A stretch of DNA of 64,000 nucleotides, taken from the NCBI GenBank assembly GCA_977862235.1, contig OZ374557.1, positions 806,001-870,000 on the forward strand. Direction: 5' to 3'. Positions within the stretch are counted from its first letter, which is position 1. Each line of letters starts with the position of its first letter. The position numbers were made by a program, and so were the translations under genes. Below the pieces are notes generated by a model. The model had not been told where the DNA came from, did no database searches, and worked only from the letters and a program-made list of their open reading frames with translations. Origin of the DNA: Dudresnaya verticillata. Its lineage: Eukaryota. Below are positions 24,914 through 53,469 of this stretch, one piece after another.

Positions 24914-25588
24914 CGTGGTGAAGTGAGCCGTGGCGCGCATGCGGCACGCCGACGGCGAGCCAACCGTAACGGGTGATGCGGCAATACGCCACGCTGATGA
25001 TCTGGCAACGTGTAACCGTGTCGGATGTTGTGCGCATTGCTGTACGCGGGTACGCATTTCTGTACAGCAGTGTAGCGCACCAGCCATACCGGAGCATTTG
25101 TAGTGTTTATTCTTTATTTTTAGTGAGTATCTGTACAGTATGTAGAGTAGTGCGCCAGCCAATAAGAACGCTGCGCATGTCCGTGTCGGAGATTGGGACC
25201 AGCAGGGCCGATTCCACCATAGGACCAGACCACTAGGGTCTGGCCCCCACGGACCGGACCGCTCGGTGCCACCCTGACTTGTATATCAGGGCGGCACCGC
25301 AGCGGCTCCTAAGGTAAACGGGTAAGCAACCTTAGCCCAATCCTTTACGGTTTTCCCCGCGCCGATCCCGTTGCGGTCTACCACCACCACCGTTACGGAG
25401 TCCGTCCCGGCACTTGTACCACCCCCTTGTCTGTTGCTTCCCAATATGCGTCTCGGTAAGCCGCTCGCTGTTCTCCCGTCTCGGTGCGAACTGCTCTACC
25501 ACCCCGTGGAGGTAGTGTTGCTCTCGTCCGTTAAGGAAAGTCATGCCAGCTGTCCGTCTCGGAGTTCGTGGGTTTTCACTACACCACA
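24914..25588 (+). repeat. 5' LTR of element C
   Basis: Direct repeat of 35603-36277, about 16 substitutions by eye. Confidence 0.95.
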
Positions 25589-25593
25589 TCTTT

Positions 25594-25611
25594 TGGTCTC
25601 CCGACCTAGAA
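25594..25611 (+). promoter_or_regulatory. Primer-binding site of element C
   Basis: TGGTCTCCCGACCTAGAA 5 nt after the LTR end. Confidence 0.88.
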
Positions 25612-25736
25612 TACCGTCACGGTTGGAAGAAACAGCCGTCGAAATCCGCTACGGTAGGAATTCGGCTGTGCCGACAACCCGTTACGGAATATTGGATAGA
25701 CAAGCAAGAACAACCGTTGTGTTCCGTTAAGGCATC

Positions 25737-28220
25737 ATGCAGAACGAAGAACACGCAGACCCTCCCGTTACGGAACCTAAAGCGGGTGACACTACCCCCG
25801 CTGCGCGCAGTCTGCGCAGTGAAGAAGGTGAAATCCGTTCCGGAGTGGAGAACCCAGAAGACATCCTTAAGGGTGCTGCTGGTAAAGCTCCCCGTTCCCG
25901 TGTCGGATCAGACGCCTTGAAGAAGGCAGCTCCGCAACCCAAGCCGGAATTCCATCGGGTCCACTGGGTCCTGTCGGAGGTCCTTCCTAGGGTGTTAGAG
26001 CATCTCCGATTGAAAGTACAACCTGGAATGGTAAAAGAGGTGGAGATATCCCTCTCGGAAACTGTTCCGTCTTTTGCTAATTCCTATCTGGAGCAGCACC
26101 TTCCTCGGATAGTGCAAGCTTTGATCCTACAGGAAAAGGTGGCCGCCGAGCTCGAGAGCCAGATTGCTCCCGGCATGGCAAGGCCTCCCACTACGGAAGC
26201 TTTTACTGAGCAACCACCGTTACGGAATGACTTCCCGGTCGAGGGAAGAACGCAGCAGCCGCAACAACCCCCGTTATGGGATTGCCGCCGGGCACAGTAC
26301 CCTCTGGGCCACTGCCACCGGCTCCCGTAACGGATTCTCAACATCAACACGCCCCTGCCGGACCAACACGCACTCAGCCACCGTTACGGTATTCCCCTGG
26401 ACACGTAGATGTGCCTACGCCAGGGCGCTATCAGCAAGAGCGCTATACCGTTCCGGTTCGATCAGGTGGAGGCAGCGACCATCTCAGCGATGCGTCCAGC
26501 TCACCCCATCCGAGTCGGAGGACCGGTCTAGGTCGGCATAAACGAGATGCCCGACACTCCCGCTCTGATCCTCCCCGTCGGTCACACATGGGCGACCACA
26601 CCCAGTGACGACGCTACCAATCCGGTATGGAATCCAATGAGAGCAGCTCTGAGGATAGCCAACACCGCTGCCGCAAGAGGAGAAACAGAAGATCGCGGAA
26701 ACGTGAAAAAAGGCATGACTCCTCTACCTCTACGGATTCAAACTCAGAGATTTCTTCCGTAACGGATAGAGAATAGGAACCGGGCCAGAAAACACGGTGC
26801 CAAATCCGGAAAGGTGAAGGTAATCCGTCCGCTACATGACAAGTTTGTCAAAGCGCTGGACTACCGCACCTACCGATTGGATAAGAGGAGTAAGACATAC
26901 GGCTCTAAGTTCTCACAGAACATGAGCCGTATACGGAAGAAACTCGACGTCCAAATGTCGTCCCATACATTCGATGGGACGGACCCTATTACCGTCTTGG
27001 GTTTTCTCGCCAAGTTTCGTGACGGTTGTAACATCAACGGCATCGCCGAAGGGGTTGCCGTCTGGTGCTTCCAGTTTTTCCTTAAAGGACAGGCCGAAGC
27101 CCTTCTACAGGCTAGGCTTGCTGGAGGTACCATGGCGGCACGTGGAGCAGGCCGAGATGCTCCGCACATATTCCGAGGTGGTGAACTTTTTATTGAGAAC
27201 CTACGCTACGGATGAAGTGATTGCTGAAGCCTATACGGATGTCAGCAACTTCAGGCAAACATCCGCCATGACGGAAGAGCGGTTCTCGAACCAGCTCTGG
27301 GCCAAGGCTCTCCGTTGCGGTACAGTATTTTCCGATCGGGCATTGAATTCACTGTTCGTTGAAGGACTCGTACCGGGTACTCGTCAACAGATGAGAAATT
27401 AGCTAGCAACGCATCCCCAGTTGGATTATCAGGCCATCACTCGCTATGCGACTGGCCTGGGTCAGTTCAGGTCAGTGCAGCGGGCAGCTCGACGCCAAAC
27501 CGTTCCGACTCACGTCTTTGATGGGCGCACTAAAGCACGCCCGTCTAAGGTGTTATCGCTGGATTCCGTATCGGATGTACACTATGAGGCGCAAGGGAAT
27601 CTTTCCGCTACGGATAATCAAGTGCTAGCCGTCGAGGGAGGCCACGGTGCCGCTACGGGAACGAGCACGGGGGTTACCTTTTCTACCCCGTACTCCTCGC
27701 CCCCGCAAAGCGTCCACCCTACTCCGCCCAGGATTCCACGCGCGCAAGGTCCCCCTATGGTGGATCTCGCCCGGCTCCTGGCCCCCAACAGCAGCCGAGT
27801 CACCGTTACGGAAATAATGCCCACGATGGGCGAGGACAGCAGCAACCAGCACCTCCGCTACGGGATGAGTCGGATCCTCGGGTTCGACGCCTTTACGGAA
27901 GTGGTAACTGTCGCATCTGCCTTTCGCCAGAGCACGTTGTTTGCCCATGGATACATGACGCCGATCGGGTTAGGCTTATGGAAGAGCGCGAGCGCAACTT
28001 CCAGAAGCACTACCCTGTAGGTCGCAGGTTCGTAGTAGGAACCAGTTCGAATCCGCAAGGGAATCGGGGCAGGCCGCATACGCCCCCTCCGCAACGGAAT
28101 GCCGCGATACTATCGGTGGAGGACCATGAAGGAGTGGAACTCGCAGAATTGCGCGAGCCCATGGAGGCGGATCCGACTGGTGCAACCTTGAATTCGGAAA
28201 ACTCAAGGGGGGATGCGTAA
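25737..28220 (+). pseudogene. gag: gag of element C, disrupted
   Basis: ALDYRTYRL, FDGTDPITVLGFL and FLLRTYAT motifs shared with gag of A and D; several frameshifts. Confidence 0.85.
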
Positions 28221-31200
28221 GGGCGCCGCCATCCCCGCCTCACGTCGTTCCACCTCTCGCGAGTGTGGACCCGGGGATCGGCGAGATACCGTTACGGAAC
28301 TCCCATTGGCTTATCAGACCAATGATACTATCTGCTTTATGTAACGTCAAAATTACAAGATGCAAATTACCGTGGGACGGACAGATAGCGTGATGCTTCC
28401 TTTAATCTCCGTCTTGGACTCTGGCGCTGGGCCCAATCTCATTAGTGCCAGGCGCCTTCCGCGCCAATGGCTCCCACTCATACGCCCAGCAGCCAGTCCT
28501 CCATTACGGGATGCGTCTAATCGCGCTATACGCCCTCTTGGTCAGATCCAACTTTTCGTCCGTATCGGAGAGCTCCGTGCTCGCGTCCATTTTCTAGTGG
28601 TCGCGAACTTGGCGACTCCCTGTATATTGGGAACTACCTTCATCGACCGCTACGTGAAGGCAATCCTCCCTCCGTTACGGAAAGCTGTTTTTCATCATTA
28701 CCCACCGGTAGCCCTTGTTGGTCAAGCCAAAATTCCGAAGACGGGAACCACTGCAACCCTACAGCCCTCACCTCTTTCTACCGCTACGGTTTCTCAGAAA
28801 ATTCGTTTAGCCAAATCTACCCTTATTCCCCCTATGACTCAAACCACCGTAACGGTTAATACCCCCACTGGTGGGTTATGCTTTCTACAAAATCATCCTA
28901 AGCCGGCTTTTAAGCACCTTACGTTAATGGCTAATGGTATTATGGATGTTGTACCTAACAAACCGTTTCGGATCTGGGTCTCTAATCTTTCTAACAAGCC
29001 GGTACGGTTGCCCAAATGTACTGTCGTGGGCCTCGCCACTGCTGTCCCTTCTGCTATTTTTACCGTTGACGGTATACCTCCATTTAAGGAGGGGAGGAAT
29101 TATTCAATCATTTAATTCTAACCTTACCTCCGAAAAGGCCAGCAGCATCTCCCCTCACGACAATGAAGTAAGCAAACCCGTAACGGAAACTAAAAATACT
29201 ACCGACTGGAAGGATCAAGTCCAGATCGGCACAGAAGAAGCATCGCTCCGTAATTGGATTTTAACCCTACTCGAGGAATATAAGTCGATGTGGAGTGGCG
29301 ATCTAGGCAACATTACAGCTGCCAAGCACCGCATCGAGTTAACTCCCGGAGCGAAGCCAGTATATCAAGCCCCATACCGTGCCGGACATAAGCAGCGAGA
29401 TCTCGAAAAGACAGAGATCGATCGTATGCTTTCCGCTAAGGTAATTGAACCAGCCTCATCGGAGTGGGCCAGCCCCGTGGTTTTCGTTCCAAAAAAGGAC
29501 GGCACCATGCGGTTCTGTGTTGACTATTGAAGGCTCAATTCCGTAACGGTTAGGGACTCATATCCCTTGCCCAGGATGGATGAGTGCATAGATTCCCTTG
29601 GGGAAGCTACTGTATTTACCACCCTGGATTGCAATAGCGGATATTGGCAAGTCGAGATTCCGGAAGAGGAAAGGGACAAAACTACCTTCACTAACCATTT
29701 TGGCTTATACCGTTTTCGGAGAATGCCATTCGGATTGAAAAATGCACCGGCAACCTTCCAACGGGCAGTGGATATAATCCTTTCTACGGTTAAATGGCAA
29801 TTTGCCCTCGTCTACCTAGACGATGTAATTGTCTACTCAAAAACCGTTACGGAACATTTCCACCACCTGAAGGAAGTCCTTACACTTTTACGATCAGCTG
29901 GGGTAACGTTGAAATTGTCAAAGTGTGACTTCTTCAACGCGTCTGTACAATACCTGGGGCATGTTATCCGTCCCGGAAAATTAGAAGTGGATAATCGGAA
30001 TATCCAATCCGTTAAGGTCGCGAAGCCGCCGACTAACCAAACGGAATTGCGATCCTTCTTGGGAATGTGCAACGTGTATCGTCGATTTGTACCCAACTTC
30101 GCTCGGATCTCAGCACCGCTAAATAAGAAAACCGGCAAGGGCTCACCGTTTGAGTTTGGAATATTATCCGATACGGAATATGAAGCCTTCGAGGAACTGA
30201 AGAGACGCCTTATCTCTCCACCTATATTGGCTCTACCCCGTCACGGATATAAATATACGTTGGACACTGACGCATGTTCCCATCAAGTCGGCTGTGTCCT
30301 TCTGCAGGAACCGAATGGCGATCACCTCCCTATTGGATACTGGAGCCGAAGCCTCACCGATGCGGAGAAAAATTATACGACAACCGAAAAGGAATGCTTA
30401 GCCGTGGTCTGGAGCATGTTAACACTCCGACCCTACCTTTACGGTGACAAGTTTATTCTCCGAACAGATTACGATGCCCTGCGGTGGATCCTGAACCTCG
30501 CAGACTCATCTGGCCGCCTAGCCAGGTGGAGGCTCCGCCTATCGGAATTTGAATTTGAGGTGCAATACCGTCCTGGAATTAAGCATCAACTCGCCGATAG
30601 GATGTCGCGACTCAGAACGGATGGCGGTGACGATAGACCTTTGGATGGAGAAGTACCTTGCTTGGTCGCCGAAAACGCCGTCGACGGATTCTATGAGCAT
30701 GGAGTTTATTTAACCAATTGGGCTACATCACAAGAAACCGCTACGGACAATAACGTAATATGCGCCGTGGGGCCCGCCAGTGGGAGTGCATCCGCCTCCC
30801 CTGACAAGCCCGACGCAATAACGTCACGGTTTACTGTAATCCAAGAATCCGACGTTAAGGATGAGACAATTACCAGGGAGGAGTTCCTTGAAGCGCAAGC
30901 CAGAGACCCTTTCTGCCGTCCCAAAGCCGATGCGGTAGGCTCCCCTGGATCACAGTTTGACTATGACCGTAACGGATTCTTGGCACGCAAGTCCCAATTG
31001 GATGGTGCTCTGCAGAAGGTGGTGCCAAGCGAACTCCGTGGACGGGTATTGTATTTATCCCACTACACCCTGATGTCGGGTCACCCAGGTGGAATCAAGA
31101 TGTATTATACACTCCTACAGGATTATTCTTGGCCTCATATGGCCAACGATGTATTTGAATCCGTTCGGACATGTCGCTCCTGCGTGAAGACAAAGGGAAC

Positions 31201-32517
31201 CCGCTTTCGGAATCAAAGATTTATGAAGCTTTTCCCCGCTAGCGGACCTTTGGAGTTTGTCGCTATCGACATTCTTGGGCCACTTCCGAAGACAAAACCG
31301 GGTTATGTCTACGTTCTGGTAATAACCGATCGGTTCTATAAGCTGACGCGTTGTATTCCGTTACGGACAACAACAGCCGTTGTGGTGGCTAACGCCTTTC
31401 TGGACGTTTGGGTGTATGCGTATGGCGCACCCCAATTTGTCCTAACCGATAACGGACCGCAGTTTACTGCTATGTTCTTTGACGCAGTGTGTTCCCTACT
31501 CGGAGTCAGGCATCTACTTACCGCTGCCTACCATCCGCAGACAAATGGGCAAGCTGAGCGGTTTAATAAGACAATCGCCCAACGTTTGCGCCATTATGTT
31601 GAGGATCATCACTCCGATTGGGATTTGTACCTGAAACCGTTGACATATGCGTACAACATGCAGGTACACCGTATTACGGAAACAACACCATTTGATTTGG
31701 TGCTGACACGCCACCCATCGGACATTGTTGTACGAGGGGCTCCTGTCGAACATCAAGAAACCGTTACGGAAGGGCGTATGACCTCGGTGCTACAAAAGCG
31801 GAGCACCATGCGCCGTTTACGGTATGCGCTCCAGACAGCGCGGACTAAGCAAACAGTGGCTCAGCAAAAGCCAAGGCACTGTTTGACCGTAAGGTGCCCT
31901 TTAGGCCTATAATCCGTAACGGAGATCAATTCTATGTCGACAGGCTGCCCCATAACTTGCGGCCGGCCGAACGCCGTGAGCGGGACCGATTGGAAGGCAA
32001 ACCGGATGATGTGGGCGAGGTGGCTCAAGAAATGAAGAAACTCCTCCCGAGAGCCACGGGGCCTTATGAAGTGGAATCCGCAACGGAACATACCGTTACA
32101 ATCCGCAAGGAAGGGGTATTGATCCCAGTAAGTATCGATCGCATCACGAAGGTTCCGATCGGAGTTGCGGTTCAGCTGGCACCCTTGACAATGCCGCCTG
32201 TCACGCCATCAACCGTTTACGGAGAAGTAGTGCCACATCCAGAAGGTACTACAGTACCGCCTACACCGTCAACGGGAATTACAACCTCCGTAGCGGAACC
32301 CCTACAATCCGATACGGAATATGTGATCGACAAGATTGTCGGTCACCGCGACGAACCTACTGGGATGACATACAAAGTCCGCTGGTATGGTGACACTTTT
32401 GAGCCCGCGGAGGAGCTGCCGCAGAATTTCATCTACCGGTATTGGAAGCAAAAGAAAAAGACATCCGCTAAGGGTAAGCCACGGCGACGGGCTAATCCAA
32501 AACGTCACTCACCGTAA
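28196..32517 (+). pseudogene. pol: pol of element C (PR, RT, RNase H, integrase, chromodomain)
   Basis: VLDSGAGPN; YLDD; DTDAC; GHPG...CRSC; TDNGPQF; NGQAERFN; chromodomain YVIDKIVGH...YKVRWYG. Confidence 0.95.
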
Positions 32518-32925
32518 CGGACAGTTGGAGTGCTGGGGTGTGAGTAGAACACACAATGTTTATCGCAAGCTAAGATCGAGGCATAATGGAAACCGTTAAG
32601 GAGATGGTCGAACTGTAACTCTAAGAGTTACGTCGACGCCGCTTCGGAGCAGGGGCAACTGTATCTTCCTCGTTGCTCCCCTGACCCGTTCGTAATCCGG
32701 GTTCCCCACTCGGATCCGATTGGAATACGCGCTGCGTATTATCTCCCAAGACGCGAATCGCACTATCCATGCGCCGGCGCTGACGACGGACCACTGCGCG
32801 GAGATGAATTACCTGTTCCATCGGCCCCTCCTCTAAGGTTAGGACTTCCTGAACGGATCCTGGCAATGGGAAGCGCTGCGTACGGCAATTGCCCCGTAGC
32901 ACCTGTAACCCACTTTCCGTAGCGG

Positions 32926-35469
32926 CTAAATGAGCCGTAACCGTAACGGGGGATCCTCATCTTCTTGAAACTCTACCTTCAGGGAGATCGACGGGTTATC
33001 CCTAACCCCGGCTTCGATTGAATGCTCCGTTGAGGAAACCACCAATACGGATGGTCCTGACTCGGGTGAAGGTACGTCCTTCCGCAGCGGTGGATTCGTG
33101 TCCTTCTCTGGCGAGGCGATATAGCTTTTCCGTAACGGTTCAGGACTTGACGCGGGGACCGAGGGCTTGTCTCCAGTTGCCCCAACACTTGGGCGCTTTG
33201 CAGCCACTTCCGATACGGTGATCGGTGCCTCACTCACCGCTGGTGTGGGAGTGGGCGCCGACAGCGGAGCACTTGACGGGGGCGGTTCAGCAGCTGCAGG
33301 CATTTGCGTCGCAGGAGACAGTGCCGCCGGCACAGTATCCGGCGCCACTTCCGAAACGGTCTGCTCCTTTGAGGCCCCCTTCTCGGACGGTGCCGCAGGC
33401 TTGGGCACCGCCATAGTCGGTGCAACCACAGCTATGGGCGTTGGGGCCTTATCCGATACGGGAGTAGTAGTCTCACAATCCACATCGCGCGACGTGGGTG
33501 TCGCAAACACCGGAAGGATTGGAGCGGGTGTCTTCTCGCTACCCGCTGACATTGATGCGATGGGCATGACCTCCTCCTGTTCTTCCAAGAAGGGGTCCGC
33601 TTCTTGCTGCCTCACCGTAACGGAATCGCGCGGGTCGATTGTAAGCAAACGCCCCGCTGCCTCCTGACAGCTCCCCCAATCTTCAGCCCCGTCCAAACCG
33701 TCACGGTACGCATCCCTTGGTGCTTGGCGAGGGGCATAGCCCCCATGGGCCTGCACCTCTAAGGCCAACCATTCCGGACGCGGATCTTCTCGATGAAGGA
33801 AATATGGCTCACCCACTCCGGGCCTAAGCGGGTGCACCGATAGGACACGGTCCTCGTCCCAACTATACCCCAAGAAGCTCGGAGTGCGTTGCCAGTCCTG
33901 CTCTCCATGTACGGATAAAAGACGCTCAACCCGATGGAGAGGGTACGCCGACCCCGTCACCAAATCGGCTACGCCGACTTGGCGAATTAGGGCGATCACC
34001 ATTACGGGAAGTTGAAAAATACGGCCACAGTCCCCTCCGGGCAGGTCATCCTCATCCTGTGGGAAGCATCGCCAGTCGGCTAACTTGGTGTTATACCGTA
34101 CTCCGTAATAGGCCACCTGGAGCCACGAGAAGAGCACCAGCATTGCCCATTCCGATCGGAAGATGCGTCACAGTACATCGAGCTGATCTTGATTCGGGGG
34201 ACGCTCTCCGTTCGGATGCTTGTGATTCCACTCGCGTTCGGTGAGTAAGTCCGCCGAGAAGTATGCCACGACGGAAGGCGTGGGGACAGACAACCAACGG
34301 GTCACCTCATAACGCTCCCACCATGACGGAGCTGTAAGGTACAATTCACGACGCACCCGATACGGAAGATGGAAGAACTCCTTAGTGTTCCACGTATACA
34401 GGATTGGCGAGCCAACTTGCATTCCGTCACGGGAACGAGTTCGCAAACGGTGTTCCGTCGCGGCATCGTCCTTCCACCCATCGGCATAGCGGAACCAATA
34501 TACCGACTGGTCATAGGGGCGGTCGAAGCAAATGAATTTCACTCCGAACGGCGCACCCCGGAGACGGAAACCTTTGGCCAACAGGTGACTCACCTTTGCG
34601 GTATATCCTACCTCATCATGGCAGCGATACCACAACAAATCCGAAACGGGAGAGGTCCGCGCTTGACAATAGCCATGCACCCATCGGCTTTGCCATACAA
34701 ATTCTCTCCGATTCGGAACAACGCCAATGCATTGATTCGCCTTGAAGAGCTGCGCCATGACGGCCTTGTACCTTCTTGCTTCCAAAACGGTTGGATATTT
34801 CTCAATGTAGTAGTCCACCGTCATCGAGGGCTTAATCTTTGCCCTCTCCGCATCGGTTCTAGCCGGGCGCCCCGCGCGATGATCAAAGTGGTGCCCCGGC
34901 CAATAACCACTCGGGGCAGGGCCCTCTCCGTCACGGATATGTACCACCGGCCACCAAGGCCCCGGTGCAGGTGGATTGGTTTGCGGGGGCCCACGCATCC
35001 GTCTCGATGTACTTGAGGAAGGATGTAGACTAGCCACCATCCTACGACTCGGCATCGATACCGGTGTCGATGGTGTCCGTAACGGAATGGCCGGTAGGTC
35101 CACCAAGTTGAGCTCCTCCCCACCACGTCGGACCTCCTCGTCGTCATCCTTGGTCGCATCTTCTCCGTGACGGTGTGTCGCTGCATTCCATAACGGGGTG
35201 CTCCTTGTGGCTGGGCCAGCAGCAAACCGATTCGGATCGTAGACAGACCAGCCGCGGCCCGCCGATAGTGCCTGTGACTGTTCCGCTGCGGTAACGCCCA
35301 CGCGACCCCTCGTAGTGCGTGGTGCCACAACCGCCGAGGGCGAGGCCTGCGCTTGAGTCGAAGCATCCGTAACGGTAGGCGCACCCGGCGCTCTCGTCGT
35401 CGAGCTCGCGCGGGTACGCCGTGTCGATTGAAAGGGGGAAGGGGAGCGCTTGCTCTTCTCCCCTGCCAT
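32926..35469 (-). pseudogene. Antisense extra ORF of element C (about 847 codons, one in-frame TGA at 34168-34170)
   Basis: ORFs 34168-35772 and 32926-34143 are in frame; likely start MAGEK at 35469; Trp/Tyr-rich core flanked by low-complexity arms; possible frameshifted tail 32621-32902 ending PAPKRRRRNS. Confidence 0.8.
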
Positions 35470-35602
35470 CTTGGAAGCGGGTGCACGAAGGAGGAGGAAA
35501 ATTTGAGGAAGATAACCGTATCGGTTGTGTGTGGGTGTGGAAGCAAAGGTAATCCGTGACGGTGGGCGCCAGAGGATGTGGCGCCATTTAAGGAGGGGGG
35601 TC

Positions 35603-36277
35603 TGTGGTGAAGTGGGCCATGGCGCGCATGCGGCACGCCGACGGCGAGCCAACCGTAACGGGTGATGTGGCAATACGCCACGCTGGTGATCTGGCAACGT
35701 GTAACCGTGTCGGATGTTGTGCGCATTGCTGTACGCGGGTACGCATTTCTGTACAGCAGTGTAGCGCACCAACCATACCGGAGCATTTATAGTGTTTATT
35801 CTTTATTTTTAGTGAGTATCTGTACAGTATGTAGAGTAGTGCGCCAGCCAATGAGAACGCTGCGCATGTCCGTGTCGGAGATTGGGACCAGCAGGGCCGA
35901 TTCCACCATAGGACCAGACCACTAGGGTCTGGCCCCCACGGACCGGACCGCTCGGTGCCACCCTGACTTGTATATCAGGACGGCACCGCAGCAGCTCCTA
36001 AGGTAAACGGGTAAGCAACCTTAGCCCAATCCTTTACGGTTTTCCCCGCGCCGATCCCGTTGCGGTCTACCACCACCACCGTTACGGAGTCCGTCCCGGC
36101 ACTTGTACCACCCCCTTGTCTGTTGCTTCCCAATATCCGTCTCGGTTAGCCGCTCGCTGTTCTCCCATCTCGGTGCGAACTGCTCTACCACCGCGTGGAG
36201 GTAGTGTTGCTCTCGTCCGTTAAGGAAAGTCAGGCCAGCTGTCCGTCTCGGAGTTCGTGGGTTTTCACTACACCGCA
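35603..36277 (+). repeat. 3' LTR of element C
   Basis: TGTGGTG...CACCGCA; after PPT, before TSD. Confidence 0.95.
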
Positions 36278-36282
36278 GCTAG

Positions 36283-36485
36283 AGGTGGAGCGATCACGAC
36301 TAGACTTGGAGCGGGAACGTCTGCGCATCGAGCAGGTGGAAAGGGAGAAAGAGCGCGAGGTTCGGAAGATTGAGATGCAGCAGGAGAGGGAGCACCGCGC
36401 GGAGGAGCGCAAGGCGAAGAACGAGCTCGAGCTGGAAACGTTCAAGCTCATGATGCAGACGTTCGCCGCCGTGGCCAAGAAGTAA
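36283..36485 (+). pseudogene. Harbinger accessory protein, 3' coiled-coil part
   Basis: Continues EMEQL|EVERSRLDLERERLRIEQ...FKLMMQTF across the insertion of C. Confidence 0.8.
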
Positions 36486-39460: not shown

Positions 39461-39478
39461 TGGTCTCCCGAACTAGAA
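39461..39478 (+). promoter_or_regulatory. Primer-binding site of element E
   Basis: TGGTCTCCCGAACTAGAA 1 nt after the LTR end. Confidence 0.85.
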
Positions 39479-41608: not shown

Positions 41609-43929
41609 ATGACTGAACGTCTCAGACGTCATGGCCCAGTTCAACGGCCTTCAAGTGGAGGGCGGCGCCGGTGTATCCGTCACCATTCGACCTTTTCGGG
41701 AGGACGCCCCGCAACGATGCGCGATTATTCTCGCGGGCCCCCTGGTTCGACCAGGAGGCCCTGCGGCACGAGGACCTCATCACCCATTACGCTGTGAGCG
41801 GATTTTTGCCAGGGGAGTTGCCCCTAGCCGTCGTGTGGACGAACGAGTGGCGCCATCGGTGCGCCATTCCGAGAGGCTGGCTGCGTATTGGAGCCGGTCA
41901 GATGCGTGCAGATTCGTATGCGTGTTTCGTCGTTGACGTGTATCGGCGGTTTACTCGCTATCCGGGGTCGGTATTGACCCCCACCGTCTTTGAATTTAAC
42001 GCAGGGCAGTACCGCGCCAATGGTTAGGTTGGGTATGGGGACAGTCTTGGGACGTTGTCACTAAGCCATGTGACTGTTTCGGCTGAGCCGCGGGTGCTTC
42101 AGGAGGCTAACCTCCTTGGTGTACGCTTGAAAGCGGATTTCCGATACTTGCATAGGACGGGCACCTTCTATTGGGAGCGCTGCGTCCGTTGGGAGTGCGA
42201 AACGCGCCGCCGAAAAGGCGTTTTTGTGCCGTATCAAGATACGCAAGTCGATCGCATTGAGCGGGAAAAGTTGCCGCATTGCTTCATTCACGTCCCGCCG
42301 TTGTGCCGAGACTTTGAGGTCAGCGAGGGCTTTGCGGCTGAATTGCCTCCGTGTGTCACGTATATTTGGCTCCGAGTTGCGGACGGATCCGTACTCTCGA
42401 TGTTAGATCGTGTTTTTCACCGAGTGGGTCATTAACGTAAGTTACGCATGGATGTGGGAGGTGTATGACACCTTCCGGCTCTATTATGTGCCGCCACGCG
42501 TGGTCAGCCTCCTTGGCGGGCTTGACTTGGCTGAAGGGCTGGGCGGTGTCAAGAATTGCCAAGAGTTCTGGGATCTACGCCATGTGGCGGATAACGTCAA
42601 CTGGGACGACCCGGTTGCTGTGCCGCCGGGGAACAGGCGCCGTAAGGCAAACCGTCCGCGTTACGCGATGAGTAGAAACCGTTCCGCCTGTGGCGATTGG
42701 GTGTGGTACAACCCGTGGACCAAACGTCTTACAATGGAGAACATCGCTGAGAGTCATTGTCGTACGGACCGCTGCACGCCAGCGAATCACCCACGTGGGT
42801 TGCGCAAGAATTGCGACTTTGCGGGGGATTTACCACCCCACTTGAGCGCCTTGATGGCGGAGGAGGATGCGTTCCACTCTAACAGCGGACCGGTTAACCC
42901 GTCTGGGACGGACGTCATTACGCCTATGGCGGCTGAGCTTACTGCGGGGGCGACAGCTCCCACGGCGACTTCGCCAGCGGCGGTAGGATCGTCGGCTGTT
43001 GTGCCTGTCGGCTTGCCGTCGGTTGCGCCATTGGATCTCTCGGCGCCCATCAATGAGGGTGATGGTGATGCCATCATGGTTGCGCCCGTGGCGAGTTCTG
43101 CGTCCGCAGTTACCCCTCAAGGCGGCTCGTCTAACGTCGCTGACGGTGCGAATTGCCCTCCTGCAGTGCCCGAATGGACTGAGGAGCAGCGCCGCACGGT
43201 GCTCGTATTTTTGCGAGCCACCGGTGTCGTCACTAACGGGTCGGGCGGGTCATCCACGACGCCCCTCGGGCACCCGCTGCTGGCTGCTCTGCAGCCCCGC
43301 GTTGCTGTAGTTCAGGCGTCGACCGTCGTTGCGACTGTGCCGTCTAACGACGAAGGTACAGCGTCTAATGACGGAGTGGCGAAAAGCCTTTGTCGCCTCA
43401 GGCGGGTTGTGCGGGTTCGTCCGCCATTGCGTCCACTGACGTTGTTAACAAAAGTCCGCCAAAGGCGAGTGCGGTGGCAGCACCTACGGCGGTTCCGCAG
43501 GCTCCAGTGGCCTCTTCGTCAGTGACGGATGTTGATCGTTCAACGCCTTTGGCGGTTAATGCGGTCCCATCACCGGAGGTGCCGGGGCCGTCGGCTTCGC
43601 CCAAGGCGGTTGAGTATGCTCCGCCGCCAGAGGCGAGTGAGCTTCCTGGTGTAGCGCCTAAGGCGGATAATGACTCTAACGCTGCGCCTATGGCGGTTGA
43701 CGAACAGTTGTCGCCTAAGGCGGGTTGTGAGTCAGGCGCGTCGCCAGCGGCGGATGTCGCGACTTCGACAGCAGTGGCTGTGGCGGGTCCCTTGCGGTCC
43801 GTCCCTGCCCCTGCTGCGAGCGCACCGTCGGTGACGGAAGACGACCTCTACTAAGAGGCGTTAAGAGAATCCGCCAATGGTGTCGGGGATGATGCCCCAT
43901 CTGAGCCGTCTGCGACGAAAAAGCCGTAG
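41609..43929 (+). pseudogene. Antisense extra ORF of element D, with stops and frameshifts
   Basis: ORFs 41671-42027 and 42055-42435 (same frame), 42410-43525 and 43390-43854; Trp/Tyr-rich core followed by an Ala/Pro/Ser tail; motif similarity to the antisense ORF of C. Confidence 0.75.
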
Positions 43930-45138
43930 CGTTGTTGGATCGTTAAGAATGGTTCGTGGGCGCGAGAGTGCGTGTGGTGTCGCTCCGCTTGTCCCGCAGC
44001 GGGGCGGTGAGCGAGGGATTCATACGTCATAGACGGTTAGTGCCGCGTATTACGACGTAGGTCGTAGTGGGAGGCCATACGGGCACGGGGGTTACCCTCG
44101 CTTGTGAAGCCCGAATAAACTTGACCGTTGTGAAACGTAGTTGCTTATGTGTCCGCTTGATGTAGAGCGCTGCTATAGCGAATAGTATGTAGCCGACGGG
44201 TCGCGTTCGTATAGACGTTGTTTTTGTCTGTTCGCTGTAGTAGCGTTTGCGTAAAAGCTTGGGGCGGCGCCGCCTTGGTGGCGTTCTTCTCCTTCCTTGA
44301 TGCCGCTACAGTAGCATAAGCCTTTTCGGGAGGGCCAATTTTCTCATGCCGATTTAGTCGTTTTGTTCAAATCGCGATTCCGCTTGTTAAGCGAATGTGT
44401 AGTTGGGGAGCCGTTTGTCGGTTGGCTTTTCGTCCTTGACGTAGGGCATGTTACGTTAGCGTCGGGAACGGCTGGGTTGGCGATGCGCCGCGCGTTGGAC
44501 GCATTTCCTACGACTCCTGGGTGCGGCTGCCGCGCCCAGCGGCGGAGTCATTTTTGCGATTAGCGCGTCGTGCATGAAACGTAGCCCAACTCCGTCTTCG
44601 ACGCCTGTTTCTTCTCTCGTGTTTGTGGGCGACCCCTTTTTCGGCTTGAGACACGTCGTTGACGTTTGCGGGCGTCACCCTCGAGGCGGTTGCGTGCGCC
44701 GCCCGTAAGGGTGGCGAGTTTCGGACTTGGCCGTGGGTGGCGCGCCTGGGCGAGGACGTGGGAGACGGTCTGTCGCGTCTGTGCTTGGTTTGCCTCGTGG
44801 GCGCTCGTAGTGCTGGGGTACACACTTGTCGGGTTCTCGTTTGTTGGGCGCCGCCTGGCTGGCGGTGCCTTCGCGTTATTGTTTTCACAATAAAAGTTTC
44901 CATTTCGTTCGTTGCCCGATTTCGTGTGGTGCGTGCGCCCTCCACGCCTTCTGACTACTGTCAGCCGTTCTGTCCTTACGGACCCCCCCGAAGAGGGTTA
45001 CCTATTCGCGTGTCGCCAACCCAATCGTCATTGATCCGGTTGATTACAGCCCCAGTCGTCCGTAACGAGTGTACGTCGGCGTCAACCCGTATGAGGGTGT
45101 GGCGTGTGTTTCGCTTCCAGCGTCCACCCTGACTAGGG

Positions 45139-48100
45139 TTATCCGCGTTGCGCGTCGTCGATGTTTGGAGGCAGACGCGTGTGCTTCTGACGGTGATACC
45201 GCACGACGTGCGATCGCGGTAGACTGGACACCGGTTCCCAGGTATTTGCTGAAGCGGGGTATCCAAACCACTTGACGCGGTAGAGGATCTCACCGTCTTC
45301 CGCGTGTGCGTGCGATTCAACCCGTTCGATAACGTACTCCGTCTCGCTTGCAGCGGTCGACGTGGGCTCCTGCCGTTCGAACGCCTTGTGCGGTTCACTT
45401 TGTTGCGTGATGGGCGTCTGCACCGCTTCTGCAAACCGTACTCGACGAGTCGATCGCCTAAGGCGCTGGTTCGGTGCCCCGGGCGCTGGCGCAGCGGGTT
45501 GTAGTTCTTCGCTTTTGCGTACGGGTTCCTCGCTTCTAGCGGCGTCCTTCGCGGTAGTGTGGTCTTCCTCATCGGCAGTCGATGCGTTTGAAGCGAGACC
45601 TACCTTGGTAGCCGGCGAAGCCGAGGTTGCGTGTCCCATTCGCGTACGGATATCGGGACCCTCCTCCTCGTCGGAGACGGACTGCGAGACACCGTCGTCG
45701 GGGTTGGCGGCGAAGGGTGAGAGCTCTGCTAACCCGCGACTTCGCGGCGTTGCATTCATTCGCTCCTGTGAGTCGTACGTGCTTCGCGGTGTCCCCGTGC
45801 CTCCTGCCGGGTCCGCCTGTGGCGTGTCTGGGGTGTCTGCTCCTTCGTCGGTTGACGTGGGGGCATTGGGCTCTGGTACGTGAGGTGGTCCCGGTGGCTG
45901 CACGGTTGCGGGGGCGGTGTGCCCTGGTGGGGTTGGCGCCCATACCACGCGGTCCCGGGATAAACGTTCGCGTTCTCCGCGTCCCTTGTCGACGGTGACT
46001 GTCTCGTCGTTGACGTGAGTTACTCGATACGGTCCATCCGCTACAGGGGCCAGCTTGTGCTTGCGCTCTGAGCGATCGGTGCTCCCGCCGCGGGCGAAGT
46101 ATTCCTTCCGTACGAATGCAAAGTCGCCCACAGAGATGTTCTCCTTCGATTTCCTCAGAGGAGTATCGACGTTCCGTTTGTAACGCGCCTGCGTCTTCGC
46201 GAGCGACTCTTTAGCGGTTCCCATCAATGCGGACAGCCAGGTTCGCCATTTGGTGTAGTACTGTCCGGCAGTGGGTACGCTTTCAAGCGACGGCTCCGCT
46301 TCTAGCGACAACGGCCGCGGGGGCTTAGAGAGCACCAGCTCGAATGGAGGGAGGTTGGTAGACGAGTGCAGTTGCGTATTGTACGCGAACATCAGGGCAT
46401 CGGTGAACAAATCCCAGTCCCTGGGGTGGTCTGCCACGTAGTGACGCAGGGAGGCGAGGATGGTTCGATTGAATCGTTCTATTTGGCCGTTACAATGCGG
46501 ATGGTACGTAGTGGTGAAGAGATTCTCCACCCCTAAGATGCGGCAGACGTCCGGGAACAACTTGGCTACAAATTGCGGCCCATTGTCGGACAGCAGCTTC
46601 TTCGGTGGGCCATACACAAACACCCAGTGTCGAACAAACGCCTTAGCGATTTCCAATGCCGTAATCTTACGTAAGGGAACCGTCCGGACCAGCTTCGAGA
46701 AGCGGTCCACGATGACGAGTAGGAACGTATTCCCCCGCTTAGTGCGTATGAGCTCCCCGAGAATATCGATGGACACAAACTCGAGAGGCTCGGTTGCCGG
46801 AACAGTTTCATCTCCTTCACGTTCTTTCGCATCAGTACCCGGTTCTTCGCGCAGGTAACGCAGTTGCGGACGGTCGGGTAACAATCCACCGGCATAGACG
46901 GCCAATAATACTCGCGTCGAAGCGTATGCTACAGCTTCCGCCCTCCGGGATGTCCTGCTAATTTGGCGTGATGCCGGAGATGGAGCAATCGAACGCGTAA
47001 CGCGGATGGTACCACGACTTGGGGTCGGGCCTCTACGGTCCGAACCAATAGTCCCTGTTCATCCGTTGCAAACGGTAGGGTGTCTCCGTCATCTAGACGT
47101 TTCCGGATCTCGGAGCAGTACTGGTCATTGCCCTGAGCATGCACCAACTCCTCTTGCGTCAATTGACGGAGGAGCACTTCACCCGCCGGTGGCGCGCTGG
47201 TAACCAACATCTGGTCAAACTCTTCGAACTCTCGTTCGGCTAAATCGACTTCGCCCTTGGCGTTTGACATACCGCTTCCCGCGTGAGCGTAGCCGTTCTC
47301 TGACGAGTGATACTCGTCCGTGACGCAACTTCCGTAGTAACACGGGATATCATCGTCAATTGGTTCGACGGTTTCGCCGTTCGTCTGTAGACGTGAGAGG
47401 GCATCTGCCTGAGTATTCAGGTATCCCTTTTTATACTTCACGACGAAGTCGAATTCAGAGAGGCGAGGGCGGCATCTCATTAACCGTCCTGAGGGGTCGC
47501 TGATTTCCATGAGCCACCTCAACGACGAATGGTCCGTATGGACTACGAAGGACTCCATCTGAAGGTACGGTCTCAACGTCGTGATCGACCAGACTACTGC
47601 TAGGCATTCCTTTTCGGATACCGAGTAGTTGCGCTCCGGAGCGGTTAACGAGCGTGACCAGAAGCCAAGCGGCTTCCGTTCGCCGTCAGGCTGCGTTTGA
47701 AATAGTGCGCAGCCAACTTGGTACTCACTCGCGTCACAATCGACGGAGTACGGTAGTCCTTGCTGTGGCAACGCCAGGATGGGCGGGTGAGTCACCGCTT
47801 CGACGAGCGTGCTGAATGCCCGAGCTTGCTCCTCGGTGAACGGTTGTAACCGGAAGTCTTGCTCTTTCCTCAACAATTTGTTGAGGGGAGCGGCGACATG
47901 CGCGTATCACGATACAAACCGTCTATAGACGTTGCACAATCCGAGAAAGCTCCGTAATTCCTTCTGGTCCCGCGGATGTTTGGCTTCACGTAACGCGGCT
48001 GTGGCCGTACGGTCTACTTCCAATCGTCCCGGACGTATCACATGGCTGAGATAGTCGACGATCGGGGTGAAGAAGTCGCACTTGGTTAACTTCAATGTCA

Positions 48101-49883
48101 CCCCGGCCCGATGCAAAGTCGAAAGGATCTCGTCAACATGACGGAAGTGACTGTCGATATCGTTCGAGAAGATGATCACATCGTCAAGGTAGACGAGGCA
48201 TGAGCGCCACTTGTAACCAGCAAGCAGGATATCGAGGGTCCGTTGAAACGTGGCCGGTGCGTTAGTAAGTCCGAAGGGCATACGCTTGTAGCGGAACAAT
48301 CCGGCATGGCACGTGAGCCGTCTTGTCGCGATTTCGCGGATTGATGGGCACCTGCCAGTAACCACTATTGCAGTCTAGGGTGGTGAATACGTTCGTTTCC
48401 CTTAGGCTGTCAATATATTCGTCGATTCGCGGGAGAGGGTACGTATCTCGTACCGTTACCGCGTTCAAGCGACGGTAGTCAACGCAGAAGCGGAGTGTAC
48501 CGTCCTTCTTGGGAGCAAAGACGACCGGCGACGCCCATGGCGATTGTGCGGGTTCGATAACCCCCTGACGCAACATGCGATCCACCTCCGCTTGAGCGAG
48601 TTGCCTTTGCTTTGGGCCAGCCCGGTAAGGCGGGGATGAAATCGGCCTGGAGCCGGGGAGCAAGTCAATATAGTGCTCCGTGGTTGCGATTTCTCCTAAG
48701 GAACCGTCCCACATCGACGAGTACCTGCGCAGCATCTCCTTCAGCTGTCCTTGATGTTCGGCTGAGAGATGACTCAGGTTCAACTCGTCCATTGACGGAG
48801 GTTTCGCTACAGTTGCTTCGATCGACTTAGCGAATGTATCCGGCTGCGCCGTTACTCCATCATTCGTTTGAAAACGGAATTCTTGATTCGCTTCTTCCTC
48901 CGCTGCCTGCTCCTCGGTGATACCTAGGACATCGGCCAGACATATGAGACTGGGGAACACTGCTGTGGGATGTGGCAACGCGGTAGCGACGACTTGTCCT
49001 TTGACGAGCGCTTGCGGACGCGCGGAAAAGTTTGCGACGAGAATCCGGAACACTCTCCGCGGCTCTACTTGAGCGACCCGTTAATAACGGCTAAAGCTTG
49101 CCGATCATATAACGTTCCAAACGGTTGGATGGTAATACCCCCTGCTCGCTCGGTCGTTACCGAGATCCACTTCTGCGCTTGTGGCGGGATGATTGTTCGT
49201 TCCGCAACGCGTATCTTGGGCGACGTTCGCCCTTTGGCCGTGCCGTACTCTTGTTCCGTTGGCAACGGGGGGTAAGACGGGGGCAGGCGCAGCGGGCGGC
49301 GCGTTATAGGGACACGGGTCCCATCGTCCAACTCAATCTCGCGACTCCGCGGATAAATCGCTTCGACAAAGCGGTCGCAAAAGTTGCAACCGAGTATAAC
49401 CGGCGCAGCGAGCCGTTCACAGACGATCAACTCCAACTTGACAACCCTTCGTCCGAGACGTACGACTAAGTCGATAGTTCCCCGGGTCTGAATCGCCTTG
49501 TTGTTAGCTTCTGATATGACGGGGAGACTCTTGGATACGATCCGTGATCGCGCTTCTAGCGGAATATCGTCAATACGAATTAAATCCGGATCAGGCCCCG
49601 TGTCGAGGACAGCGAGTTTACGTGCCAAGGTACCTAAAGTTACGCCTAGATCGGCGTATACCTTGTAGTTACTTTTGGCCATTACGAACAACTGTCCCCG
49701 GGCTTGTGAGCGCTGGTACCGACGCCAGGGGCGCTTCAAGGACGTCTGTGACGAGTCTACCCGCCTATCGGCGTATTTTTTAACTAAGTTCGGGTCCTCC
49801 TTCCGTGTCAGCACCCGAGGCGGAAGCCTCTCTGCTTGGTGCGACACCCCAGTGTCAGGAGTTGGTACCCTCATTAGTTTTTC
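45139..49883 (-). pseudogene. pol: pol of element D (PR, RT, RNase H, integrase, chromodomain), frameshifted
   Basis: [44 protein letters not shown]; chromodomain YVIERVESH...YRVKWFGYPASANTWEP. Confidence 0.95.
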
Positions 49884-52426
49884 GCCTGCGGCGGTTGTAG
49901 CGGCGCTGTGTAGCGATTGATCACCGTCGGATGACGTTCTGCTGCATGCGGCATAGGTCCGCCCCGTGGTGACGGTGGTCGTGCTGCACGGCGTGCTGCT
50001 TCGCGCGCAGCGCGTTCTTTGTACCGAGTGTACGCATCAGCGGGGACCCCCGCCTTCTCGACGTCTGTTCAGCCTTCGTAGTTGGCGATCGCTTTCATAT
50101 ACTCGCTCATGCGGAGGAAGCAGTCCGGTGCGATGTGGCCACGGGCATAACACTGGTGACAGATCAACTGTCTGCGAGCGTCTTGACGGAATGGACCCCT
50201 GTCTTGCCATTCTGGCCTCGCCCGATGGACATGGGGGGCATACTCCGAGTACGGAACGTGTGGCGCGGGTACAACGGAACGCCCCAAGGCGAGTGTGGGA
50301 TCCATTGCCCCTGTGTCCTCGTCTTCGACGTAGCTGTCCGTTGGTAACGCTGAAGTTGGCACTGACGCTTGTTCGTCGGCCAAATAGAGATCGCCATCGG
50401 CGTGTGTTTCCATATCGTCCACGTGACGGGTGACATCACGGAACTCAACGGAAGACTCCGCTATCATAGCGCGTGCGGCAGGCTTAGTGCCCCTCGTCTG
50501 TCGACGTAGAACCGTTCGGTTTCCGCCAATGGCGGGGCGCAATGCGCGAGCGGCTTGGGCCGGGGCCATTATATCTCGTCTTACTGACGTCGAGCCGGCC
50601 CTGCCGTGTCTTGCGCGTTGCGCGTCACCTTCGTCCTGCGCGAAGTGGACTAAACGTTCAAAAGATAACTCCGCCCTCGGCGTTTCTTCGCGGAAGCGGG
50701 CCACCAAGGACCTGATCGTCGGGTCTAACCCATCGATGTACAGTGTCATCTTCTCCCCTTCAGGATAAACGTTATCGCAACGAATACACGCGCCGGCGAG
50801 TCTCATGCCGTAAGTCGTTTCGTCTTCGCCTTTCTTCTGACTAGTCGACCGCAGGGCGAGGACAGCGTCTCGAATCGCCGAAGGCGTGGCGTACGTGCGG
50901 AGGAGGTAGTGCACCGCCTCCAGGTACGATGATACGCCGCCGCGGTGGCGTGAGGACGATTTGACGGAGCGGAATTGCGTGGCTGCCGTACCTCGTAAGA
51001 AGTACGGCAGCGCGACGAACGCTTGTGCTTCGCTCATCTCTAGCGTGTCCGCTTCGTCCGCGAACCGCGTTAAAAAAATGAGGACCATGACGGGGTCGCT
51101 GCCGTTGCAGGCGGCGTCCTTCATTGTTAACTCGAGTCGCTTGATATGGTCTTTGACCTTTCCGGTTTCGCGTCCAGATCGTTTATGACCCACGTCTTGA
51201 AGACGGTATGTGCGGTACGATAGCAACTGATCGAAGACCGGATTGGAGGGGCTCAGCTCCTTCAGTCCCTTGTATCGCTTTCCGCGGAGCCGCATGGCAC
51301 TGCTGTGAGCCATGCGGTCGTCGTCGTCAGACGAGGAGCCTGTTGACCCGTCGTCACTAGACGTGTCCGAAGAGGATGGGGATGAGTCCCCCCGTCGCTG
51401 ACGGTTCTTGTTCCGTCCATGACGCGACTTGCGGCGATTCTTGCCTCGTCTCTTACGATCCTTGCGTCGGCGACGGTCTTCCTCGGAACTACCGTCATCA
51501 GACGGCGGCCCTTGGCGCCATTTGGCGGTTTCCAGTCGCTCCAAGCGGGTTGCTAATCGCTGAAAGCGTTCACGTGAACCCAGTTCTGACTGAGAGTGGA
51601 CCGTCAATGCCGCTGGCTGCGGGGCATCTACTCCGTGGTTGGGGTTCGTCATCAGACGGTCGAGGTCGGAGCGGAGTCTTTGAAGGGCACCGTTCCGATC
51701 TTCTTCCAACGTCTGCAGACGGCTGAAAATACTTCTGACATTGTCGTCGAGCATCTCCGTGAATCGAACGAGTAAGTTACCGTCTTCGGCGACGCATATT
51801 TCCCGGATCCGCTCGCGAGGTATCGTGAGATTACTCACGCGGGTGGATGCTGGGGACGCCACTGGCGGTGTGCGCGCGGGGGTCGACGCCTGCGGCGGAA
51901 CTCCCGTGCTGCGCGGTTGCGCTAACGGCCTGGCCAGTGAACATCCGGCACTGCCGTGGGGTGAGGGGCAGCAGCCCCTTAGGATTGGTGATTCGTCTAT
52001 GACGTCGCGCCCGGCAGGACGTTCTTGGTCGTCGTCGACGGGTAAGGTTGGTTGGTGGACCGGAACTTCCGGTTGGTCCTCGACGATGTCGGCTTGGGCT
52101 CCGTCCTCGACGGGTCGCTGTTCGGCTTGGACCGTGTCAGCGGAATCCACGTGCGAGTGGTAGGTTCGGAGGGCCGATTCGTTGGGAACGGTGATACGGA
52201 TGACGACGGGTATCGGCGGGGGAGGTACTTCTTCCCTGTTGAGCGATATACGGGAGTGATCGTGGCCAGGACCGGTCGGAAAGGCCGATGCGATCTCGGG
52301 GCTCACGAGGCGCCCAGACCTTGTTGTCATCCGCTGTAGCGACCGCTCCGACGCGGGGACACTCCCCGGCGTCGATGACGGTCGTCTTGAACTGGGGCCT
52401 CGCGACGGCAGCGGTCGTGAGGCCAT
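49874..52426 (-). pseudogene. gag: gag of element D (785-aa ORF plus disrupted tail)
   Basis: CCHC knuckle CHQCYARGHIAPDC; similar to gag of A; ends ...AKN* at a slippery site. Confidence 0.9.
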
Positions 52427-52534
52427 AATGCAGTCGTAGAGTTGCTTGAACGTCGTGGACGATTAGCGACGGACGTCTAGAGACGGAAGGTCGGACGTCG
52501 CACGACGGAGCAACTTCGTTGAAACGTAGCACAC

Positions 52535-52552
52535 TTCTAGGTCGGGAGACCA
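52535..52552 (-). promoter_or_regulatory. Primer-binding site of element D
   Basis: TGGTCTCCCGACCTAGAA, identical to the PBS of C. Confidence 0.9.
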
Positions 52553-52554
52553 GT

Positions 52555-53469
52555 TGTAGCGCAAACGTCCTTGACGGAACACCGCCGAGCAGTTGGGGGC
52601 TCGGTGGGTAGCGACGCCCGTGGCGGTGAGTAGCCTCACCTTGGGCGACTTGTGGTAGAGCAATTGACTCGCCTTGGGCGGACTGTAAACGCCCGAGGCG
52701 GAAAGGAAGAACAAAAGAGAACAAAAAGGGAACACGTCAAAGACGGGTAGAGACGTGGAAGCACGGGAGGGAGACGCTTAGCCGTAGGCAGCGGTAGGGT
52801 ACGCGCGTGCTGAACGGGGAAGTCTGGACCAAGGCCGGCTTGCCGGGAGTTTACCTCAACGTCTGAGACGGATCAACTAAGTATAGAACTACCTAGCGGC
52901 GGCGACGCGTGTGTAGGCGCCGCGCGGGAACTCGGGACACGTGTTGTCCCGAGGCGCGTCTGACAGATCCGTCCGTCATGCAGCCGCGCTCCTGACAGAT
53001 CACGCGTAGCTTCCCTGCTCGAGTCCTTACACCTACATGTGGATGTACTTCCTTACAGCCGCATGCGCCCCATGGCGCGTGCGATCTCGATCCGCACCAA
53101 TCTCGATCCAGTCCGGATTCGGGCGAGCCATGCGGATGCGCCAGGCGTACAGGCGCGTGCCTTACACCTCCTAATCCCGATGTCGGATCCCGATGTGGGA
53201 TCTCGATTGGATCCGGATTCGGGCCACGCTTACAGCGAACGTTCCCGCCACTGCGCCATGCGCGTACGCGTGGCGCCGTACAGTGCCCCGGGTTCAGGCG
53301 TGCGGTCTGCACGCCAAGCGAGCCGTTCTGGCCCGAGTGGTCAGCGGCATGCGCCGGTGACGTGTTTGCGCCGCGGGCGGGTTGAGCGCGCCGTTGGCGG
53401 TCGTCCGTCGGTAGACGCAGGATATCAACCCGCTTGAAAGCGAAAAAGGGGGACCCCCCTGGTACTACA
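52555..53469 (-). repeat. 5' LTR of element D (915 bp)
   Basis: TGTAG...CTACA; adjacent to PBS and TSD. Confidence 0.95.

Follow-up and report, generated by a model that had tools for sequence, protein, structure and literature searches.

The window analysed here is the whole stretch of 64,000 nucleotides of Dudresnaya verticillata DNA at positions 806,001 to 870,000 of contig OZ374557.1 (forward strand), and all coordinates below refer to it. The window is eukaryotic and transposon-rich, with a G+C content of 55%. It contains four Gypsy elements, A to D, with reverse transcriptase (RT), ribonuclease H (RH) and integrase (IN) or chromodomain matches, together with Helitron, PIF/Harbinger and pogo-like remnants. 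The present study deals mainly with elements C and D, each of which carries a long open reading frame (ORF) antisense to pol and many dispersed copies of a short palindrome of its own.

Element C is located at 24914-36277 on the forward strand. Its long terminal repeats (LTRs; 24914-25588 and 35603-36277) are 675 bp long and about 97.6% alike, and the target-site duplication (TSD) is GCTAG. The primer-binding site is at 25594-25611, and the identical 18 nt are present in D at 52535-52552 on the reverse strand; the primer-binding site of B differs from this common one. The region 25731-32517 contains gag, which is interrupted by stops and frameshifts, and pol, which encodes protease (PR), RT, RH, IN and a chromodomain with a few breaks. 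On the opposite strand, the antisense ORF (32926-35469) consists of 847 codons with one internal stop at codon 434. Its conserved core (about 33829-34917) has low-complexity arms rich in P, S, A and T on both sides. Element D is located at 40344-53469 on the reverse strand, with LTRs (40344-41175 and 52555-53469) about 97.7% alike and the TSD ATTAT. On the reverse strand at 45139-52462, pol occupies the part from 45139 to about 50068 and gag the part at 50069-52462, and the antisense ORF (41631-43930, forward strand) has several frameshifts and stops, with core pieces at 41838-41927, 41965-42399 and 42404-42547. According to the TG...CA LTR ends, the 5-bp TSD and the order gag then PR-RT-RH-IN, both are Ty3/Gypsy elements with a chromodomain integrase. 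The one exception to the TG start is the 5' LTR of C, which begins with CG. The Chromo match has an E value of 5e-9 in D and of 6e-4 in C, the latter being under the curated cut-off.

With both LTRs counted, CCGTWACGG occurs 27 times in C (24964-36087) and never in D, and CGCCN3GGCG occurs 40 times in D and three times in C, at 24947, 35332 and 35636. A preliminary description of this DNA had claimed dozens of copies of an element's own palindrome over LTRs, gag, pol and the antisense ORF, and no exact C motif in D. Both claims agree with these counts. It had also given a single D motif in C; the copy at 35332 is present, and two more had been missed. With one LTR removed, the C motif is found 25 times against 0.2 expected and CGCCN3GGCG of D 35 times against 0.8 (order-2 Markov model). 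The enrichment of a single motif in C and D is 40- to 100-fold.

The sites of D are more varied than had been described. The symmetric sites of the form CG-YY-N3-RR-CG (40355-53399) comprise 40 CGCC, 36 CGTC, 11 CGCT and 7 CGTT sites. CGTCN3GACG, with 36 copies (32 with one LTR removed), is thus a second D motif, and 19 CGTC-N4-GACG sites are found additionally. Element A (about 1-6400, reverse strand, 3' end beyond the window) has the motif G-NN-G-N4/5-C-NN-C, and GAGGN5CCTC occurs in it 11 times at 662-6303 against 0.16 expected. In element B (11180-19905, forward strand, LTRs 95% alike), stems of 4-6 bp with a span of 12-15 nt are in excess generally, and no single motif is present. Each element keeps to a fixed span, which is 9 nt for the sites of C, 11-12 nt for those of D, 12-14 nt for those of A and 12-15 nt for those of B. 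The preliminary description overlooked the second D motif, the covariation in D described below, the A motif and the stem excess of B.

Synonymous-codon shuffles were performed (n = 300 per region), with the Helitron as the control. The observed number of C motifs was reached in none of the 300 shuffles for pol (8 against 0.3), the antisense ORF (5 against 0.1) or gag (3 against 0.3, where two of the three gag stretches may not be in the true frame throughout). The same was observed for CGCCN3GGCG of D in pol (8 against 0.7), gag (6 against 0.6) and the antisense ORF (11 against 1.9). No excess of either motif was detected in the Helitron under codon shuffles. The enrichment persists under dinucleotide and codon shuffles, the check that had been proposed for it. 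The sites of C and D are spread over the LTR, gag, pol and the antisense ORF, and no tandem arrangement and no 10.5-bp phasing were found. In C pol, the motif is found in all three frames and avoids strongly conserved columns, which hold 5 of the 39 motif residues and 217 of the 674 remaining ones. Outside the Gypsy elements, stem counts in the window are close to those expected (z up to 2.5). The stretch at 6.4-11.2 kb, which may hold the end of A, shows 1.41 times the expected stems.

The marks of C and D differ in how their two halves are related. The C site is a graded weight matrix, W-CCGTWACGG-W, with A/T-rich flanks. Within the 10.7 kb of C that are left without the second LTR copy, 70 sites differ from it by at most one mismatch, whereas A, B and D contain 1, 4 and 3 such sites. 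When CC and GG are kept constant, the third position is changed on one side only 19, 17, 11 and 10 times, where the background is near 4, and compensatory changes on both sides are not enriched (5 and 5). Since one-sided variants are common and compensatory ones are not, the C site resembles a symmetric dimer site with independent halves. In D, 85 of the 97 CG-YY/RR-CG sites are symmetric, against 31 expected if the halves were independent, and the half-by-half table is 35/3/1/32 (Fisher p 1e-15). The covariation indicates that base pairing is kept in D, not sequence alone. The dimeric binder suggested in the preliminary description fits the independent halves of C; with independent half-sites, it cannot produce the D pattern. 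The classes of D sites are intermixed along the element (31 runs against 34.5), and a mosaic origin of its two motif classes is unsupported. The pair just outside the D stem is depleted (10 of 85 against 23.5, p 0.0006), and a 4-nt spacer is accepted (CGTC-N4, 18 against 1.1). No gain of further inner pairs is seen (16 of 85 against 20 expected). According to the symmetry, the intermixing and the depleted outer pair, pairing of a defined length is what is kept. Covariation is also observed in A (17 of 21 sites symmetric) and in the related family L013 (42 of 70), and exact pairing is needed in D, A and L013 alike. Only C has a fixed centre.

Relatives were fetched by their integrase, and the best 80 of at least 571 metagenome loci gave 19 families. 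The 17 families of at least 2 kb were used, L053 and L049 (under 2 kb) being dropped, and the RT tree was built without L065. For 4-bp stems with 3-7 nt loops, the ratio to expectation is 2.06 in A, 2.35 in B, 1.76 in D, 2.28 in phage MS2 RNA and 0.86 in the Helitron. The stem excess (3-7 nt loops) reaches z of at least 5 in eight of the 17 families (L013, 19; L014, 12; L046, 12; L031, 9; L009, 7; L058, 6; L002, 6; L021, 5), is weak (z 3-4) in four and is absent from five. The enrichment thus differs between lineages, as the preliminary description had supposed. The related families all have less sharply defined sites than C and D. CCC-N3/4-GGG is common to L014 and L031, and L013 favours GGN-N4-NCC. 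In B, L013 and L046, the generic excess is about as large as in MS2. Perfect 6-bp stems are found at 14 and 8 times expectation in L014 and L031, against 4.3 in MS2, and the folding excess of L014 is -4.3 kcal per 50 nt; L014 and L031 are unusually structured retroelement sequences. On the contig L040, two adjacent elements, both with the antisense gene, have stem ratios of 0.80 and 2.22. This difference between neighbours rules out a host-wide cause, and the stem excess is a property of the element.

Stems in the relatives also evolve under constraint. The fourfold-site test was applied to seven of the 17 families, five with some excess and two without. Fourfold G/C sites diverge less inside stems in all five families with excess (p 0.0005-0.024) and in neither of the two without; these p values are optimistic, since the copies are related, and the automatic choice of frame took some open frames outside gag-pol. 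The divergence inside stems and elsewhere is 0.067 and 0.139 in L014, and 0.124 and 0.264 in L031. Between copies, a single change disrupts about 30% of the stems, and compensatory double changes are not in excess. The frequent breakage and the lack of compensation suggest that sites turn over and are interchangeable. Clustered multi-base changes in the same arm are not in excess either. An origin of the stems by template switching is unsupported, neither these nor compensatory double changes being in excess.

The basal relatives L082 and L083, without an antisense match, show 1.04 and 1.47 times the expected stems in coding DNA. The ratio is 0.99-1.21 in three distant Gypsy loci. L082 has an intact pol frame of 1704 codons. 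Nine CGCC-TNC-GGCG hairpins with 5-7 bp stems are found at L082:6297-7944, only in the 3' non-coding region, and may belong to an inserted element. On the minus strand, every loop of these hairpins is GNA, which is an extra-stable DNA triloop. Gypsy elements of the clade (L082, L083 and L090) are found on contigs within bacterial metagenome-assembled genomes, and these contigs are probably eukaryotic contamination. Palindromes of their own are also in excess in the distant retroelement loci L091 and L093 (CTCGCGAG, 6 against 0.1; TCG-N-CGA, 20 against 5.4), as counted with tandem repeats left in.

The antisense ORFs belong to one gene family. Direct tblastx between the ORFs of C and D gave low-complexity matches only. 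A profile built without either sequence, however, matches both, with E values of 5.6e-99 for C and 2e-8 for D, the D pieces being colinear across three frames, and the homology that had been suspected is thereby confirmed. With the C core, 107 cluster representatives were found. Of the 37 loci in which 3 kb or more follow the integrase, 25 have the gene antisense to pol, and eight of the 12 loci without a match belong to families with a match in another copy. In several relatives, the frame is open over 630-780 codons, and the naturally intact antisense proteins include those of L014 and L002 and PXF39757.1. The ratio of nonsynonymous to synonymous substitution (dN/dS) is 0.12-0.59 in nine of ten pairs and 0.89 in the remaining one. 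The antisense tree and the RT tree agree in their main groups (FastTree, partial sequences), so that no natural swap separates the antisense gene from Gag or RT. From these sequence comparisons, the antisense ORF is taken to be a real, conserved and co-inherited gene.

No Pfam domain, TRP28 (PF04195) included, is common to the 109 members of the family, and among 20 clusters looked up the only named homologs are hypothetical proteins of Gracilariopsis chorda (one cluster), which would point to a red-algal host. Searches of PDB sequences, PHROGs and Rfam gave nothing useful, and no relatives were found in viral contigs and phages. A word-index homolog search found none with the C core and the query alone with the alignment. 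The antisense protein is arginine-rich (10.5%), and the net charge of its core is near zero (median +1). The AlphaFold2 model of the core is confident and mostly helical, with a predicted local distance difference test score (pLDDT) of 85 and a predicted template modelling score (pTM) of 0.86; the pLDDT of the C-terminal half is 90. Foldseek against the pdb and viral sets returned no rows at E 0.001. In the VIA fold search, the best Z was 3.7 for the core (root-mean-square deviation 4.3, 58 aligned) and 3.2 for the C-terminal half (7.6, 70 aligned). The predicted core thus has no fold match, which does not by itself prove a new fold. A weak PARP-like lead from the Atlas (0.85) was dropped, as the model is mostly helical and no ADP-ribosyltransferase was found among the PDB matches, and a second Atlas search gave no usable match.

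The preliminary description had proposed to test whether motif enrichment and the ORF occur together. The two do not always coincide. L050, L071 and L034, which form one clade and hence one independent case, have the antisense gene, no stem excess and no strong non-palindromic motif. B and L009 show the excess and no detected antisense gene; both are decayed or interrupted, and the gene was possibly lost. In B, the 2.6 kb from pol to the 3' LTR (16862-19466) matches neither the antisense family nor the other loci, and this region is possibly a decayed or unrelated extra gene.

The best explanation, to which we assign a rough probability of 40%, is that the palindromes are selected, dispersed, self-pairing marks, acting as RNA stem-loops which a protein of the element reads for self-selective packaging. 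The marks would be short stem-loops in the genomic RNA of the element, particular to each retrotransposon lineage, and the element-encoded protein would package the RNA of its own family ahead of others. Many weak, interchangeable sites would add up, copies gaining sites would propagate better, and sites would collect where the encoded proteins tolerate change. The lineages would range from shape only (B, L046 and L013) through fixed letters at the stem base (A, D and L014) to the full sequence (C), and C would be the end point, at which sequence is read in place of pairing. The RNA phase and the packaging are what we infer. As for the reader, Gag would be the first candidate at somewhat under even odds, the antisense protein would come close behind, and action without any protein would be improbable. 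As B has the excess without a detected gene, and L050, L071 and L034 have the gene without the excess, a reader carried by all elements is favoured. The pairing of protein and motif put forward in the preliminary description is one live possibility. In its boldest form, a clade of red-algal Gypsy elements would possess a self-recognition system, in which an antisense-encoded protein of new fold would read element-wide symmetric marks, its specificity having evolved from shape to letters to sequence, for packaging, activation or unsilencing of its own element only; we hold this version tentatively, at about one chance in three.

Several observations weigh against RNA stem-loops read for packaging. 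In C, the stem excess is just 1.16 times, the RNA does not fold more strongly than expected (+0.28 kcal per 50 nt), and the lack of compensatory two-sided changes misfits a hairpin. The loops of D are unconstrained, and no preference for GNRA, UUCG or GNA loops was found in the pooled families. In the relatives, compensatory double changes between copies are lacking, and fourfold A/T sites are significant in two of five families and reversed in L073. L050, L071 and L034, without marks, also carry Gag. As neither C nor D yielded a close relative, selection on their sites is inferred from other families, the copies of which are not independent. Finally, G.T against A.C mismatches, strand folding energy and loop A:T show no strand preference. 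The same three tests are blank on the MS2 control also, and since MS2 showed no asymmetry they were rejected as discriminators.

The rival that survives best, although we consider it unlikely, is a system like that of the VANC proteins of VANDAL DNA transposons. The antisense protein would bind double-stranded DNA as a dimer, cover its own element by way of these sites, and lift silencing or switch on transcription. For C alone this is the best fit, with its palindromic weight matrix, independent halves and A/T-rich flanks. The conserved, arginine-rich antisense gene, with its low-complexity arms and a tree matching the RT tree, agrees with such a protein, as do the strand-symmetric composition of flanks and loops and the low stem ratios of L082 and L083, which have no antisense match. 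D rejects independent half-sites, however, and reading its type of symmetry on DNA would take a fold-back (cruciform-like) or symmetry-sensing mechanism. The generic excess in B, L046 and L013 without a single motif, B without a detectable ORF, and L050, L071 and L034 with the ORF and without a palindrome excess are also difficult for this explanation. The net charge of the core is near zero, and the elements are not depleted in CpG (observed/expected 1.06-1.29). VANC motifs are described in the available text as non-coding and tandem-spread (PMC5735166), and the marks here are neither.

An explanation without any reader is improbable. General local structure of RNA or cDNA would be kept because paired bases mutate less, or because folding aids stability or evades RNA silencing, and the sequence flavours would be by-products of the RT of each lineage. 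The generic excess of B, L013 and L046 equals that of MS2 in size, and shielding from mutation would likewise lower the change in stems. However, such a process cannot account for C and D each being enriched 40- to 100-fold in a single motif. It leaves the fixed spans and the depleted outer pair unexplained, and adjacent elements on one contig differ. Template switching, moreover, predicts the same-arm multi-base changes or compensatory doubles of which neither is in excess.

Least probable of all is a linkage of dimers, in which each palindrome would pair with the same site on a second genomic RNA so that RNAs of one family are co-packaged: it needs symmetry, has no strand bias, suits the 4+1+4 geometry of C, which is too tight for a hairpin, and has a precedent in the palindrome-driven dimerization shown for Ty1, but D has no extra inner pairs and avoids longer stems, C lacks compensatory variants, and the Ty1 sites, in the available text, are few and within the 5' untranslated region (5'UTR) (PMC6844567).

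Other features were observed around the elements. A PIF/Harbinger DDE_Tnp_4 transposase is located at 36606-37727, and C appears, from the sequence, to be inserted within the PIF/Harbinger second ORF (24073-24913 and 36278-37727), which has no Pfam match. A 426-codon ORF at 22403-23683, the start of which resembles a signal peptide and which is rich in Cys at the ends and in P, S and T in the middle, has no match in Pfam and is probably a host secreted protein. A remnant of a pogo/Tc1-like DDE_1 transposase (9384-11354) directly adjoins B. Beyond D, a decayed D-like LTR fragment (54019-54520) is 66-68% identical to the D LTR and contains D-type symmetric sites, and two CGCC-TTC-GGCG hairpins are found beside it at 54462 and 54502. 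A Helitron-like Rep/PIF1 helicase remnant (55600-60800) has 90%-identical repeats on either side (55075-55537 and 62561-63025).

These results touch the question of how co-resident retrotransposon families distinguish their own copies from competitors and parasites, and that of the role of the widespread antisense extra ORFs in Gypsy elements. A lineage mark can be read from the sequence and is graded across the clade, and beside it lies a conserved gene, some members of which are naturally intact and for whose product no matching fold was found. Should the antisense protein be the reader, its fold would be a new one for nucleic-acid binding, and its specificity would be evolvable; should it be Gag, the marks would be a genome-wide packaging code in a retroelement. 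A full-text search, outside which most subscription papers lie, found no published description of the antisense family or of element-wide palindromic marks in LTR retrotransposons, and the available part of a recent preprint (bioRxiv 10.64898/2026.08.24.746577) mentions neither retrotransposon, LTR nor palindromes. Papers on red-algal genomes may already list the antisense ORFs in their repeat-library annotations. Within the literature searched, this real pattern is undescribed.

Multiple dispersed packaging signals are known from single-stranded RNA viruses such as MS2 and satellite tobacco necrosis virus (STNV), in which they are read through the loop. Many short constrained stem-loops in coding sequence are likewise found in D, A, B and the relatives, though not in C, and the stem excess is similar to that of MS2. 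Here, however, the loops are free, the letters at the stem base are fixed and no loop motif is shared. No system of dispersed packaging signals in retrotransposons was found in the literature searched. The DNA uptake sequences of Neisseria and Haemophilus are short self-marks in bacterial chromosomes that serve transformation and are not palindromic. As is proposed for the present marks, such a self-mark gathers in tolerant coding DNA through biased propagation; unlike our case, no mobile element is involved.

The Ty1 sequences PAL1 and PAL2 are also self-complementary sequences in the RNA of an LTR retrotransposon with a role in particle RNA, but the available text describes two sites in the 5'UTR, whereas 70 to over 100 element-wide sites are found here (PMC6844567). 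In the plant Gypsy elements Retand (TRP28), Grande and RIRE2, antisense extra ORFs are suspected of nucleic-acid binding, and in most families, as here, the region separating pol from the 3' LTR contains a long ORF antisense to pol (PMC11963269). The present elements differ in having a chromodomain, no TRP28 match in the 109 members and no tandem arrays, and the accessible part of that report mentions no element-wide motif for the plant ORFs (PMC11963269).

In the VANDAL DNA transposons, binding of VANC proteins was shown for motifs such as YAGTATTAY and AGTTGTCC in non-coding tandem repeats, according to the available text (Hosaka et al., 2017; PMC5735166). The analogy to VANC drawn in the preliminary description holds in part. 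The elements here are LTR retrotransposons, and their sites, known from sequence alone, are palindromic, non-tandem and dispersed in coding DNA, with halves that covary symmetrically in D. A single motif is lacking from B and from most related families. The motif does not always accompany the protein (L050, L071 and L034, one clade). Pfam and fold searches with the antisense family, which included no direct comparison with a VANC sequence, gave no shared Pfam family and no fold match. What the two systems have in common is an accessory protein encoded by the transposable element separately from the transposition enzymes, short family-specific motifs accumulated in the cognate element (here C, D and A), and fast divergence between families.

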